A DNA stretch of 64,000 nucleotides from a candidate division WOR-3 bacterium (GCA_965649205.1 CBFGJV010000004.1:32001-96000), one strand, 5' to 3'. Shown: positions 30,001-36,000, counted from the first letter of the stretch. Numbers: made by a program.

Positions 30001-33000
30001 ATGAGCCAGCCGGCCGACACGTTATACAAATACTCCATAACCGGCAGAAACTGGACCTCTGCTCCCGGCCCCCATCCCGGCTGGGGTTACAACTGGTCAC
30101 CCACTGTTGTGGCCTGTGCGGGCAAACTATATTACATCAGCGGCTGCTCCATACCCGGAGCCACAAACCCCACTACCCGGGTATGGCGTTATACCCCAGG
30201 AGTAGGTTGGACACAGGTGGCGAACCTGAACCGGGGCCGAGTGTTTGCTCACGCTGTCGCCTACCGCGACACCATCTGGCTGGCCGGAGGCATAGCCGAC
30301 GGCCTTCCTCTCACTCACACTGAATTCTACGATCCGGTCGCCAATGTCTGGACCGTGAACAACTCTGTGTTCCCGCAACTGCCCGAAGCCCGCTGGGGAG
30401 GAGCGGCTTCCCAGACAGGAAACCTGATGGTCATAGCTTCGGGAGTAAACCCGGCTGGTAGTCTTACCGACTCTGTATTCGTTTTCAACTTCAACACCCG
30501 CACCTGGACCATAGAAGAGGGCGTTCCCACCCGGGTCTATCGTACTAGCGGCTGCGGGACCCCGGACGGAAAGGCATTCATCTGCGGCGGTTCCATCGCT
30601 GGCTTCACCCCTACGAATATAGTTCAGTACAATACGTACTCGGTAGCGCCCGCCCACGACGTCAAACTGGCGGCCATTGTCGCTCCCGGCACCAGAGTGG
30701 CTCCTGGCACGCCGGTCCAACCTGTGGCCCGGGTGCAAAACATGGGTTCGTCTGCCGAAACGAATATCCCGGTGACCTGCCTCATAGACTCGGCCGGCAC
30801 CACAGTCTATAACCGCAGTACCACCCTTGCTGGCCCGCTGGCTCCTGGCGCCAGCGCGCAAGTACAATTCAGCCCCAACTGGACGCCAGGACCCGCGAAC
30901 GCCATATATCGCGTTAGAATGTGGACCGCGCTTGCCAGTGACTCCAACCGCACCAACGACACCCTGGTCCAGACCACCCGTTCTGCCAACCTCATCACCG
31001 CTTTGTGGCTCTACAGTGACGAGTATCCGCCCGAGACCCTCGCTGTCCAACTGTATTCTCTTGGCGACTCTCTGGTGTTCTACGACATCCGCGCTAATAT
31101 CCCGCCTTTAGATACCCTAATGCGCTATCCGGTCGTGGGCGTACACACCAACTTCGCTCCCGCCGACTCCGTAGTTCTGGGCAACCTGCTCGCCGACTAC
31201 GTTGACGCGGGCGGCGGAGTAGTTTTGGGCCAGTTCAGTTTCACGTCCGGCTGGCACGTGGCAGGCAGAATAATGACCGGCAATTATTCCACCATCGGCA
31301 AAGGTGCGAACACTCAATCCTCCACCACGCTGGGCTGGAGGCGAACCGCCCACCCGATAATGGCCGGAGTAGACTCGGTACGAGAGTTTTATGCCACAAC
31401 CGCCCCGTTCCTCACCGCCGATTCTGTGGCCAAGTGGGCAGACGGCCGACCCTACGTCGCAGTCAGCGCGAATCAAAAAGTGATAGGCGTGAACAGCTAC
31501 CCAGGCTACTACCAGATGACGCCGCCCCAGCGTGGCGGAAACTGGGCACTCGTGTTCCACAACGCTCTGCAATTTGCCCGCGGTACGGTAAGTCTGGAAG
31601 AGTTCGACCCCTTCCGACCTGCGCTCCCCTGTCGCTTGCAGATGACACCCAATCCTACACGCGGCTTTGTGCTTGTAAACTATGTTCTCCCAGTCGCAGG
31701 ACCTCTGGAACTCGCTATGTACGACCTGAACGGCAGGCTGGTAAGAAAACTGTATCAGGGTCGCGCTCTTTCCGGCTACGGTCAGACAAACTGGGATATG
31801 CTTGACCAGCATGGAAAAAGAGTAGCGCCGGGCGTCTACTTCTGCCGCCTCGTCTCCGGCAACTACAAACAGACCGCTAAGTTAATTGTGGAATGAAGCG
31901 GAGAATATCTCCTAAGCTTATTTACGACTATGCGAGAATGAAAGCCAAGAAAGGAGTACAGATGCGTGTTATCCCCACTCAACTCCGCCAGTTGCAACCC
32001 ATAACTTGTATCCTGTCCATTCTTCTACTACTTTTCACTCTCACCGGTTGCCCGCAAAAGCCACCGCCACCCGAGCAAAAAAACCAAGCCCAAACCGAAA
32101 CTCTTTCCCAGCAGACCGAACTTGAACCAGACTCCGCAACTAAAGAAGAAACTACTGCCACGCCGTCCGCACCTTCTACCCAGCCCACGTCTCCACCCGC
32201 TCAACCCGAGACCGCAACTTCCCCAGCTCTTCCTAAGCTCTGGGATTTCTGGGCTGCCTGGTGCCCACCGTGCCGGGATCAAAAACCCATAGTCGAAGAA
32301 CTCGCAAAAGAGTATGCCGGCGTTATAGAAATCAAGTCCATAGACATAGACGCAAACCAGGACTTGGCAAAACAATTCGGCATCTCTGCTATTCCCACCC
32401 TCATATTCCTTGATGCCCAAGGTAAAGAACTGACGCGACGTGTGGGTTTCTACCCCAAGGACTCAATTCTGGCACGCTTTCGGTCACTTGGATTTATAAA
32501 ATAACCCAACTCAAGCTACCTGGCGGGTCATGCTGCTGAATACGACCATTGACACCACTAGACTGAGAGCTACTATTTCAGTATGAAACGACGTATGGTA
32601 AAACAACTGCTGCCAGCCATAGCACTGCTAATTTCTGGCCCAGCACTGGCGGCAAACATACTTGTCTGGAACTATGACCCGGAAGATAAATTCTACGACC
32701 AGACAGTAGGAGACTCTATTGACTGCGCTTGGTGGGTAGAGCGTGACCTCCAGGCGCTAGGACACAATGTCACCCTCTCCAACTACGACCTACCCGCAGA
32801 CCTTGCGCCTTATGATGCGGTATTCTGCCTGATGGGCTGGTACCGATGTTGAGGAGACAACTGTACCGTCGGTCCGACGGAAAGCAATCGGCTGATTTCC
32901 TATCTGCAGAGCGGCAGGTCGGTATACGCTGAAGGCGGCGATTTCGGCTATTCTAATCAGAACAGCAATCTCTGGCCTTATTTCGGCTGTCGCTTCGTTC

Positions 33001-36000
33001 ATGACGGTTATGCCAGCGGCACAGGAAACGTACAAAGCCTCACCGGTGTATCCGGTACCTTTGCCGCCGGGTTAAATCCGAGCTACTTATACAGACAACC
33101 ACCGGATAATTACGTGGACGAACTGGCAACTAATGGCGGCACTCTGCTCTTCCGTGATCAGTCTTCTCTTGGCCGGGTAGTGTGTCACCGTCCCGGCTCT
33201 AGCCGTACCATCTGCTCTGCGGTGATTTACGGAGCTATGAGCCAACCAGTACGTAGACAGGTAATGAAAGGCTACATCAACTACCTGCTGTACGGAACAG
33301 GAATTGCTGAATCGGAGACTGTTCAACCCGAAAGAGATGCTATTAGCATAACTCCCAATCCTACACGCGGTCTGGTCCGTTTTTCGGTTGCCCCTCAGAT
33401 TCAGCAGCTAACGATAACAGACATCACAGGTAGAATCGTTGCTACCTGTCCGGTTTCTGGCGGGAATGCCGTATGGACGGGCAGGCAGTCCGACGGTCAG
33501 CCAGTGCCTTCTGGTGTCTATTTCTGCCAGGCATATACTCAAATCGTTCCGTTTACCATGGTGCGCTAAAGACCACCCACGTATTCCGCGTACCCCTGTA
33601 GGAAAAACTTCTTTACCGCCTAGTTTACTTCAAATGGAACATAAATTAAAATAATTCTTATCTAACAGGGAGTGCAAATGATGAAAATACTGGTGATTGA
33701 AGGTAGCCCGCGTCAAGGTAATACCGCCGTCGTAACCGACTGGGTCCTCTCTGGTTTGGGTCCCGGTATGCAAGTAGAGCGCATCCGGGCAGCCGAGTTG
33801 AACATTCACGGATGTCAGGAATGTATGCGCTGCGGAAATACAAAAAATGCAGCCGGGTGCCAACAGCACGACGATATGCTCATTCTTTATGATAAACTCG
33901 TGGAAGCCGATCTCACCATCTTCACCACCCCGGTATTCTGTTGGGGCGTAACCGCCCAGCTCAAGGCTGTGATAGACCGCTGTTTCGCCCTGCTGACAGG
34001 CGAATCTCTGCTTAAAGGAAACAAATGGGCGCTTATCATCACTGCCGGCGGGGACCCCTATGACGGAGCAGACCTCATTGTGGCCATGTTCAAGAACCTG
34101 TGCCATTTTGCCGGAATTGAATTTCTCGGCCAGCACGTGGTGGCTAACTGCCCCTCTGGCAGAAAGCTTCGTCAGAACAAGCTGCTTGCCCAGCAGGCGA
34201 GAACATTTGGCCGCGAGCTGGCAAAAATTCTGAAGACCGCCTGACCCGAATTCGCCTATGGACAGAAGAGGATGGACTTACCCGCGCCAACTGCGCGCCC
34301 TCCTGTTCCTACCTATGGCTTTGCTCTTCCTTCCCGCCTGCGCATGGGGAGCTATTTATGGCGCAGTAAAGGGGTTTGTACGCGACGCTTCTAGTGGGGA
34401 AGCGCTCGCCTACGCCAATGTTTACCTGGACCACACAGACTACGGTGCGGCTACCAGTGCAAAAGGTTATTACTACATTGGCAACGTACCGCCCGGCGAT
34501 TACCACCTCGTTGCTTCGTTCGTGGGCTACTCTTCTGTCCGCCGGCCTATTACGGTTGTTGCCGGTCAAACCCTTACCGTGAATCTGGAACTGAAACCGG
34601 GTACGGTAGAACTCAAGGAAGTAAAAGTCTCTGCTGAACGCGCCAGATTTGAACGCGAGGTAGAAGTATCTGCTACTCGCCTGGAAACAAAACAGCTTCT
34701 GCTCACTCCCCGGGTAGGTGGCGAACAGGACCTGTTCCGTGCTGTCCAGCTGCTGCCCGGAGTAGTAACTACTTCCGATTTTTCCAATCGTCTTTATATC
34801 CGCGGGGGGTCACCGGACCAGAACTTGATTCTTCTGGACGGTATCAGCGTATACAATCCTTCCCATTTATTTGGCATTTTCTCGCCCTTCATCACCAGCG
34901 CTATATCAGACGTAACCCTTTTGGCCGGCGGATTTCCTGCCCGCTACGGAGGCAGACTCAGCTCCGTTTTGGACGTGACTACCAAAAACGGCAACTCCAA
35001 ACATTTTTCCGGAGAAGGTTCTGTATCGCTGCTTGCTACCAGCGGCCAGGTGGAAGGACCTCTTCCCTGGCGCAGAAACACTACACGATCCGACTCTGCC
35101 GAATCTGCAGGTTCTTTTCTTATTGCTGGCCGACGCACCTATCTTCCCGACCTGCTTCTTTCCACCTTCGACATTGAAGGTTTAGGCTACTATTTCTACG
35201 ACCTGTTGGGAAAAGCAAGCTACAATTTTTCCTCTGATTCTCGTCTCACTGTCAGTGCCTTGGCAGCCGAAGACGTTCTCTCCTTCTGGAATCCGGACAA
35301 TCGCACTGCGCTGGATTCAAAGCTGCGCTGGGGCAATCGTGGCGTTTCTGTGCGCTGGAACCGGGTTTTCACTCCCGTGCTCTATGGAGAAGCGTTGGCA
35401 GCGTGGAGCAACTTCCGTTCCCGTTTTGACGTATCCCTAGGCCCGGGCCCCGCAGCCCAGCTTTCTACAGACTTGACTGACCTAACTGTCAAGTCGGACT
35501 TTACCTGGTATCTGGCAGACGCCCACACGCTGGATGTAGGACTTGACGCTAAATACATACACATAGCGGCCGGCTTCTCCTACGACACCCTGCGGGTCCT
35601 GCCCCGGGATACATTGGTACCCGTCTGCATCTACCTGGACGAAAAGTGGGAGGCGGTACCCTCCCGGCTGTTTTTCAAGCCAGGGCTGCGTCTGACCTAT
35701 ATTTCCAAGGGTGAACGACTGGAACCCGAACCCCGTCTGGGAGCAAAATATCTGATCGGTCGGAACACCTCGCTGAACGCCGCGGTCGGACGTTTCACCC
35801 AACCATTAGTAACATTAAACTCCACCGATGTAGTATTCTCCATCTACGACGTATGGTTGCCAGTTCCAAGCAATCGCAGAGTGCCCCGTGCGTTACATCT
35901 TGTTACCGGCATAGAACACTGGCTTTCTTCTGACGCGATTGCCGAACTGGAAGCATACTACAAGCACTACTCCAACCTGCTGGAGGTTCGCTATGGCAGA

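Follow-up and report, generated by a model that had tools for sequence, protein, structure and literature searches.

An in-frame TGA may be a stop that separates two genes or a codon at which selenocysteine (Sec) is inserted, and a locus in the genome of a candidate division WOR-3 bacterium raises this question together with a second one, of what a Sec residue might do in the domain that carries it. We analysed this locus in a window of 64,000 nucleotides, the whole stretch of DNA under study, from whose first letter all positions are counted. The gene occupies a single plus-strand frame, open for 335 codons from stop to stop and interrupted by one TGA at the codon of residue 90 (U90). Under translation table 11 it is called as two pieces of 89 and 151 amino acids, together with an antisense ORF of 81 amino acids at 32790-33035. 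The proposal of the initial annotation that the two small genes are one gene of 328 amino acids agrees with this frame and, from the conservation of the plus frame, we infer that the antisense ORF is spurious. Gene callers cut members of this selenoprotein family in two. The features of the locus are collected in Table 1.

Table 1. Features of the selenoprotein gene and the basis on which each is assigned
Feature	Position	Strand	Basis
Whole gene, predicted to be read through TGA as Sec	32583..33569	+	frame; TGA at the same codon in 46 places in 39 genomes of the phylum
Signal-peptide-like N-terminus, residues 1-23 (a basic start, then a hydrophobic core, with ALA ahead of the domain)	32583..32651	+	by eye
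GATase1/ThuA-like alpha/beta domain, residues 24-240, with beta-hairpin insert after strand 1	32652..33302	+	model
Cys48, a candidate partner thiol where helix 1 begins	32724..32726	+	conservation
C89-U90-G-D-N-C94 loop after strand 3	32847..32864	+	sequence, model, alignment with CxxU/CxxC
In-frame TGA, predicted Sec90	32850..32852	+	frame; conservation in relatives and metagenome loci
SECIS-type hairpin CCGTCG-GTC-CGACGG, G-led 3-nt loop	32866..32880	+	sequence; survey of relatives
G118-G119, GATase elbow position after strand 4	32934..32939	+	model, alignment; no Cys in this protein
T9SS type A-like C-terminal sorting domain	33348..33566	+	TIGR04183 at cut-off

Judged from sequence, the SelB/SECIS route almost certainly inserts Sec at the UGA, so that one protein of 328 amino acids is made. 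The genome encodes SelA, SelB, SelD (which itself carries one TGA) and tRNA-Sec, all above cut-off, and the tRNA-Sec is the sole TCA tRNA listed for it. The alternative, that the TGA is a real stop or a Trp codon and the locus two genes, a pseudogene or a case of another genetic code, can draw on the Met that many relatives have shortly 3' of the TGA and on the Trp that stands at the site in three database proteins (P0002, P0003 and P0069), the latter probably a product of the caller's choice of code. It is nevertheless hardly credible, given that TGA is an ordinary stop in the host and the commonest one (472 of 1107 long ORFs), that no in-frame ATG, GTG or TTG occurs for 87 codons past the TGA in this copy, that the signal peptide and the sorting domain lie on either side of it, and that the codon is kept across two phyla in the company of a hairpin and of Cys homologues.

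The conservation of the codon is extensive. The initial annotation had noted a single conserved TGA in the orthologues of the family, and this now extends to all 13 orthologues (one of them split over two contigs) among 43 relatives. In the wider phylum set of 272 genomes, for which assignment to WOR-3 was by the names of the hits, the 46 places fall in 39 genomes; within the close group, every full-length member has TGA as the codon of residue 90, and the TGA is present in all 44 metagenome loci in which the site could be located, out of 50, the locating pattern having missed it in six. SelA is encoded by 36 of the 39 TGA-bearing WOR-3 genomes as against 122 of 272 overall, with SelA fragments in two of the remaining three and tRNA-Sec in the other. 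In Cloacimonadota, where a sister clade was found, the corresponding numbers are 68 of 74 and 107 of 232, and the six genomes with no SelA match are drafts. One genome, G501, has the family gene directly 3' of selA-selB-selD on the same strand.

The model of the bacterial SECIS element given in section 5 of PMC13188914 is a hairpin with a G-led loop 16-37 nt after the UGA. Here the loop begins 19 nt after the UGA; the hairpin that the initial annotation described is present, with its stem beginning 13 nt, not 12 nt, downstream. Applying this model in code of our own, with a cut of -4 kcal/mol on the energy of the hairpin alone and expected counts from synonymous resampling, we find a hairpin in 42 of 45 WOR-3 TGA members (6.0 expected) and 23 of 26 Cloacimonadota TGA members (5.1 expected). 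The stems are entirely different from one clade to another. Seven of the eight Cloacimonadota Cys forms have one as well (3.2 expected), so the hairpin does not tell Sec from Cys forms in that phylum. A scan for promoters and terminators stayed at chance (2 against 1.5 and 2 against 2.0, respectively), and no RNA holders were listed.

The sister clade makes this a large selenoprotein family, with TGA forms in 39/272 and 74/232 genomes of two little-studied phyla. Its Cloacimonadota members are CxxU forms, with 94 TGA places and CxxU in all 26 TGA members examined, and with these the C89-U90 loop aligns. It had been stated that there is no Cys-form homologue; the WOR-3 clade itself indeed yielded none, but eight natural Cys forms occur in Cloacimonadota, seven of them with CxxC (modelled as a tight helical turn), and further ones in database proteins P0026, P0035 and P0086. 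Because expression of such natural Cys forms needs no Sec machinery, they make the function open to immediate test. Database protein P0028, known from a protein record only, has Arg-Pro where Cys-Sec stands. In a tree of 90 rows made by a quick method, the Sec forms of WOR-3 group together (99), as do the Cloacimonadota forms (95), inside which the Cys forms are nested; either one or two origins of Sec would be compatible with this tree. Homologues account for six of the 52 matches in a DNA-pattern scan, the others being chance. A query of the ESM Atlas with Cys form P0027 gave unnamed clusters as the closest, followed by DUF4960 and MJECL34 at 0.93-0.95, which are leads only.

Around the Sec residue the sequence is less rigid than was first supposed. 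The motif G-W-Y/F-R-C-U-G-D-N-C-T-V-G, previously called invariant, occurs complete in no more than 14 of the 45 full-length TGA members, and in 44 aligned rows the only invariant residues around the site are G85, U90 and D92; on this alignment, the claim is wrong outside the close family. The residue preceding U in the 45 WOR-3 members is Cys in 41, Thr in three and Gly in one. Each of the 45 has at least one candidate partner Cys, and 44 have two or three. Cys48 is one such position (Cys in 33 of 44 aligned rows; of the 26 CxxU members from Cloacimonadota, 21 have it too), and Cys119 is another, occurring in 13 of the 21 members without a Cys at +3 or +4 as against none of the 24 that have one, a pattern that stems from few independent lineages. 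Sec is kept in all 45 while the partner Cys shifts. Homologous domains with neither Cys nor Sec adjoin S8 peptidase, PKD or dockerin domains.

For the domain itself, the earlier finding that it has no Pfam family is borne out by searches of Pfam and of NCBIfam 20.0, the latter with 44 members and the Cloacimonadota forms, and a sequence search of the PDB gave a best E of 0.4. The GATase1/ThuA-like fold previously assigned from a model of middling confidence stands, and the confidence is now high: with an alignment of 110 rows the mean pLDDT is 96.7 and the pTM 0.94, the block containing the Sec loop reaching 84. The structure matches are headed by uncharacterised proteins of GATase1-like fold (2gk3, Z 17.9, rmsd 3.5, 191 aligned; 3rht, Z 17.6, rmsd 2.9, 185 aligned) and by accessory domains of GH42; active amidotransferases rank lower. 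Among the best 50 structure matches, GATase1-like folds cover the whole domain at Z 18, and the fold is probably not thioredoxin-like. STM3548 (2gk3), 3rht, the GH42 accessory domains (4oif, 5xb7), ThuA (1t0b) and the N-terminal domain of IFT52 (5fms) share the fold over 176-194 residues at Z 15-18 but are only 9-17% identical, and the Sec/Cys loop and the beta-hairpin insert are peculiar to the present family. Several of these proteins presumably lack an elbow Cys likewise.

The initial annotation had placed Sec at the nucleophile elbow, a placement that the topology of the model, from which (rather than from superposition) we mapped the sites, does not support. By the order of elements, strand 3 is followed by the loop with U90, which corresponds to the oxyanion-strand position, and the elbow position, after strand 4 (VYAE), is Gly in 37 of 44 rows and Asn in seven. 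The only conserved His in those rows is H61, with none in the C-terminal half, and the His-x-Glu of the GATase triad was not found near their C-terminus. Profile-profile alignment with 26 active GATase domains was not significant (probability 0.2-0.5%); it set the SGGP strand against the one that precedes U90. As modelled, then, the reading of the protein as a Sec-dependent hydrolase or amidotransferase is not supported, and we regard a catalytic nucleophile of a secreted enzyme of this kind as very unlikely; a loop for Sec/Cys redox or metal-binding chemistry on an inert scaffold is likelier. In its favour are the GATase1-like fold, the position of the loop at a strand edge where such folds would bear active sites, a Cys adjoining the elbow in 13 of 45 members, the entry of a GATase selenoprotein with GxUxG in Table 1 of PMC13188914, and a set of conserved charged residues (D35, D92, E117, D120, D175, D179, R198 and R208). 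Several of the acidic ones recur, however, in Cys-free accessory domains and are therefore probably structural, and NF004836, the model of the catalogued GATase selenoprotein, was matched neither by the 44 members searched to a limit of E 1 nor by the Cloacimonadota forms.

It is likely, on sequence grounds, that the protein crosses the inner membrane by its signal peptide and leaves through a T9SS-like SprA/PorV route, probably to the cell surface. A hydrophobic stretch precedes the domain in all 36 members with a short N-terminus, and lipoprotein-anchored forms of the family also exist. The T9SS sorting domain reported earlier is retained through TIGR04183, which matches residues 256-319 marginally (23.1 bits against a cut-off of 23); the Pfam models FlgD_ig and Por_Secre_tail both fall below cut-off. 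The host encodes SprA and seven PorV above cut-off and two PorU-like proteins below it, as well as a DsbD/CcdA membrane domain; for the PorK/L/M/N motor and ring, a search for GldN gave no match in the host, nor did the control of that search. As in T9SS type A cargo of Bacteroidota, a signal peptide is combined with a C-terminal sorting domain and SprA, PorV and PorU-like proteins are encoded by the host, but this host lies outside Bacteroidota, which points to the use of a T9SS-like system beyond that phylum.

What the Sec residue does is a more difficult question. We give about even chances to the proposal, drawn from sequence and model, that it forms an extracytoplasmic thiol-selenol redox centre, with Sec or Cys, on an inert GATase1-like scaffold. 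The domain, a frequent accessory module of large secreted proteins in both phyla, would be catalytically inert, with the Sec/Cys loop grafted onto it after strand 3; U90 would be an exposed selenolate that in each cycle forms a selenenyl-sulfide with a Cys close by (C89 in this protein, the CxxU Cys in Cloacimonadota, or alternatively C48, C94 or C119). Acting on secreted proteins or small molecules, the centre would reduce or exchange their disulfides, polysulfides or oxidised thiols. CxxU in 26/26 members of the sister clade, CxxC in 7/8 Cys forms and a partner Cys in 45/45 WOR-3 members favour such a centre. Against it are the fold, which is probably not that of thioredoxin, the shift of the second Cys between clades, the location of a surface protein beyond the periplasmic DsbD, and the flanking genes, which offer no partner: the 72 flanking ORFs surveyed at 33 loci of relatives (flanks up to 1.5 kb, 26 of 98 ORFs, mostly short, being left out) show no conserved operon, no thioredoxin and one rubrerythrin, and a thioredoxin lipoprotein upstream in the window is not conserved. 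CU motifs have, moreover, been argued to be heavy-metal ligands, in bioRxiv 10.1101/2022.07.06.499078.

The last point leads to the possibility, in our estimate a somewhat unlikely one, that the cluster of C48, C89, U90 and C94 binds soft metals or metalloids (Hg, Cu, Ag, As) for metal capture or detoxification at the cell surface. The CU dipeptide in 41 of 45 members would suit such a site, as would the fact that 44 of these 45 have two or three partner Cys, and as does the reading of CU and CC in SaoL, SaoB, SaoC and HgcA as heavy-metal ligands in the same preprint; yet the ligand positions vary across clades, the 72 flanking ORFs show no recurrent gene for metal transport or resistance, and the Cloacimonadota motif is CxxU/CxxC, usually redox-active according to section 7 of PMC13188914. 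An unlikely alternative is that the Se-S bond is structural or protective, staying closed where a reducing, sulfidic milieu opens disulfides, and would staple the loop of a protein whose job, in binding or scaffolding, lies elsewhere. Speaking for a staple are the Sec motifs that this genome carries on unrelated scaffolds (FG-GAP-like, a redoxin and a domain without family), the existence of the domain without any Cys, and the rise of some Cys forms inside the Sec clade in SelA-bearing genomes. Against it, Sec is retained in 45/45 WOR-3 members though the partner changes, and the strained bond between a vicinal C and U is typical of redox centres.

The family appears to be uncatalogued. Of the 119 entries in Table 1 of PMC13188914 (2026), no description mentions this domain, its motif context or these phyla. 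In the literature searched, most subscription papers being outside its scope, there was no WOR-3 selenoprotein, no report of selenocysteine in Cloacimonadota (Cloacimonetes/Cloacamonas selenoproteins led, in the portions available, to tRNA surveys only) and no Sec-bearing T9SS cargo. The known CU/CxxU selenoproteins (SaoL, SaoB, SaoC, HgcA and KCU-star; SelW-like, AhpD-like and GrdA) share with the family an in-frame UGA, a G-led hairpin, Cys homologues and CU/CxxU, and SaoB, SaoX and SaoC are likewise exported (bioRxiv 10.1101/2022.07.06.499078); the present family differs in its fold, its T9SS-type sorting domain and its lack of an NCBIfam 20.0 match for the domain. NF004836, the CTP synthase C-terminal-related GATase selenoprotein of deep-Sep (PMC12013277), also has Sec in a class I GATase-like fold, but its GxUxG, to go by the motif, would be the elbow motif, in contrast to the C-U-G-D of a strand-3 loop in an exported protein. 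This combination of fold and export route was not found among catalogued prokaryotic selenoproteins.

We tentatively extend the proposal to a cell-surface selenoproteome of WOR-3 and Cloacimonadota, a reading we hold at less than even, in which several T9SS cargo scaffolds of unrelated origin would each have had Sec/Cys motifs grafted on and would work as a joint extracellular coat for redox chemistry or metal capture, and in which the present gene would be the first case of a Sec loop added to an inert GATase1-like domain. Together with the other TGA-split cargo genes, the family points to extracellular selenium chemistry in uncultured bacteria: the host genome has four more TGA-split candidates with sorting domains, and the other Sec scaffolds comprise an FG-GAP-like protein with G-U-C, a domain with U-G-G-C and redoxins with UxxC.

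The 328-residue protein belongs to a real family of exported selenoproteins that spans two phyla, the host's WOR-3 and the Cloacimonadota, and that is apparently uncatalogued. The host's assignment to WOR-3 follows the names that its homologues bear in the databases (candidate division WOR-3). No family for its domain exists in Pfam or NCBIfam 20.0, a 2026 catalogue of 119 prokaryotic selenoprotein families (PMC13188914), examined by word search and in two of its sections, contains no entry with this domain or from these phyla, and a search of open-access papers returned nothing relevant. 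The catalogue's sole GATase-fold entry carries a GxUxG motif (deep-Sep; PMC12013277), whereas the Sec of the present protein lies in a C89-U90-C94 loop.

Translation table 11 splits the gene, at its single TGA, into pieces of 89 and 151 aa, with an 81-aa antisense ORF spanning the junction. On the 5' side of the TGA lies a signal-peptide-like start and on the 3' side a sorting domain (TIGR04183, 23.1 bits against a cut-off of 23; Pfam matches fall under cut-off) and from these, together with SprA, PorV and PorU-like genes in the genome, we infer that the protein is exported, as the initial annotation proposed. A search of the genome for GldN gave no match, nor did any positive control; a DsbD/CcdA domain is encoded. 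Immediately 5' of the gene is a W-C-P-P-C thioredoxin, preceded by a lipoprotein-like signal and a linker rich in Pro and Thr; no thioredoxin was found adjoining the gene copies of relatives. A promoter-like TTGACA-16-TACTAT ends 6 nt 5' of the ATG; such matches occur at chance level and, were it a true promoter, the mRNA would be almost leaderless.

That the TGA encodes Sec, as first proposed, is now established to the extent that sequence evidence allows. SelA, SelB, SelD (itself with a TGA) and tRNA-Sec are all found above cut-off in the genome; because TGA is a normal stop there, used by 472 of the 1107 long ORFs, and the sole TCA tRNA listed is tRNA-Sec, a Trp code does not apply. A profile search of 272 WOR-3 genomes gave 45 full-length places, all at E-values no higher than 1.8e-52 and all containing a single TGA, and a further gene divided over two contigs whose first piece holds the TGA; below these the search falls to E 1e-27, with domains lacking a stop. 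Read individually, the same codon is TGA in all 46 places (39 genomes), and likewise in the 44 of 50 metagenome loci in which the site was found by a scan seeded with the WOR-3 motif. SelA is present in 36 of the 39 genomes versus 122 of 272 overall, which is consistency and no test since related genomes are non-independent; of the other three, two have SelA fragments and SelB and one has tRNA-Sec.

The hairpin CCGTCG-GTC-CGACGG begins 13 nt 3' of the TGA, with its loop at 19 nt. Scored with our own implementation of the bacterial SECIS model published in PMC13188914, such hairpins occur in 42 of 45 WOR-3 members against 6.0 expected from synonymous codon resampling (12.5% at other codons). 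The whole of the motif originally described as invariant is present in only 14 of 45 members, and its T-V-G tail reflects the RNA element, since in the close family the stem codons are fixed (the loop codon varying in the amino acid it encodes, S, P or T) and other clades build the stem from entirely different sequences (TCGCTCA/TGAGCGA and GCTGACT/AGTCAGC, for example).

Among 1.84 billion representatives searched, 1027 matched at E 0.001; many of these matches start just past the Sec site and some have CxxC there, two of the latter named Cloacimonadota. Searching 232 genomes of that phylum located 111 places, spread over 82 genomes; by hand count, 94 of the places have one TGA and 17 have none. 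Among 36 domains read, 26 are C-x-x-U, seven C-x-x-C, one R-x-x-C and two lack Cys, the U/C column aligning with U90, so Cys forms, earlier thought absent, do exist. SelA is found in 68 of 74 TGA-bearing genomes versus 107 of 232 overall, with no match in six, and in the genome G501 selA, selB and a NifS-SelD fusion precede the CxxU gene on one strand, with another exported UxxC candidate upstream. The hairpin is present in 23 of 26 TGA forms, where 5.1 would be expected, but the Cys forms have it too, 7 of 8 against an expected 3.2. Because a quick tree nests the Cys forms within the Sec clade and their genomes also have SelA, they possibly keep the hairpin through a recent Sec-to-Cys change.

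Family architecture varies. Nine of 45 WOR-3 members have a long N-terminus before the domain, mostly with a lipoprotein-like signal, and no sorting domain; remoter Cys-free copies are accessory domains of S8 peptidases, PKD or dockerin proteins. Some Cloacimonadota CxxU genes form tandem pairs, both with Ig-like repeats and one with an N-terminal MAM domain. One copy, in a 99% complete genome (G165) with Sec machinery, is missing its N-terminal half, and with it the Sec loop, and is probably a truncated gene. Eight stand-alone secreted homologues of 250-280 aa (P0026, P0041, P0043, P0050, P0066, P0076, P0077, P0117) end in a short tail of non-T9SS type. Seven of them have no Cys at the Sec site and the eighth has a single one.

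Locations of the genes and elements discussed (window positions unless a contig or extracted locus, L, is named; G000, genome under study)
Feature	Location	Strand
Selenoprotein gene	32583-33569	+
In-frame TGA	32850-32852	+
SECIS-type hairpin	32866-32880	+
Thioredoxin	31893-32504	+
Promoter-like match	32549-32576	+
FG-GAP-like sorting-domain protein, in-frame TGA (F-G-U-C-I-G), SECIS-type hairpin	G000:C22:18852-20057 = L235:353-1558	+
Sorting-domain paralogue, S-G-U-G-G-C at in-frame TGA	L234:373-2433 (G000 C13)	-
Sorting-domain paralogue, S-G-U-G-G-C at in-frame TGA	L237:415-2577 (G000 C6)	+
ResA/TlpA-like redoxin, U-P-S-C, hairpin, sorting domain	L236:311-1726 (G000 C16)	+
G501 cluster: DUF6029, sorting-domain protein, UxxC sorting-domain protein, selA, selB, NifS-SelD fusion, CxxU gene, sorting-domain protein	L230:8310-19932	-
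Tandem CxxU pair	L231:4753-10223	-
Tandem CxxU pair	L232:5092-10812	+
Truncated copy (probable), G165	L233:1226-1870	-

The class I GATase/ThuA-like fold assigned at first agrees with a domain model built from 110 alignment rows (pLDDT 96.7), whose top matches among 48,161 chains are STM3548 (Z 17.9, rmsd 3.5, 191 aligned) and 3rht (17.6, 2.9, 185), followed by GH42 accessory domains (15-17), ThuA (15.6), IFT52 (15.2) and HisH and GMP synthase domains (12-14); Foldseek agrees. In class I amidotransferases strand 3 is the oxyanion strand and the nucleophile follows strand 4. The modelled order is strand 1, hairpin, helix 1, strand 2, strand 3 (79-83), the C89-U90-C94 loop, helix, strand 4 (113-117) and helix. 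Mapped by this predicted order, Sec is outside the nucleophile elbow where the initial annotation had placed it, because its loop follows strand 3, whereas strand 4 precedes Gly (37 of 44 rows) or Asn (7 of 44).

A Sec hydrolase is thus a very improbable reading; H61 is the only conserved His among the 44 rows, and profile alignment to active GATases gave no significant match. We favour, with about even confidence, a redox centre that the Sec/Cys loop would form, exposed on an inert GATase1-like scaffold, because the sister clade has CxxU/CxxC, at least one partner Cys is present in 45 of 45 members and there is no hydrolase triad. In the main rival, which we consider doubtful, the loop would bind a metal or metalloid, as CU motifs are taken to do in the SAO system (bioRxiv 10.1101/2022.07.06.499078), and a structural Se-S staple appears improbable. 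Against all four readings alike stands a neighbourhood without conserved genes (72 flanking ORFs of relatives' copies). Cys at residue 119 occurs in 13 of 21 members without Cys at +3/+4 and in none of 24 with it, one point suggesting a shared pocket, few lineages being involved. The Cloacimonadota CxxC is modelled as a bridge and a helical turn (pLDDT 97.1).

Of 121 sorting-domain frames scanned in the genome, ten are preceded by a TGA and an open frame, and five of these, the present gene included, have a Cys or Sec-like motif at the codon. The remaining four of the five encode a pair of U-G-G-C paralogues, a redoxin of the UxxC type and an FG-GAP-like protein with G-U-C. The hairpin is found in one of the two U-G-G-C paralogues. 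The FG-GAP-like G-U-C protein, whose body matches no NCBIfam model, has one TGA in 44 of 44 places (TGAs counted per place) in 29 of 44 family genomes, one of which (G043) gave no match in a SelA search; it is a candidate second exported selenoprotein family. The ResA/TlpA-like redoxin is likewise a candidate exported selenoprotein, of the UxxC type.
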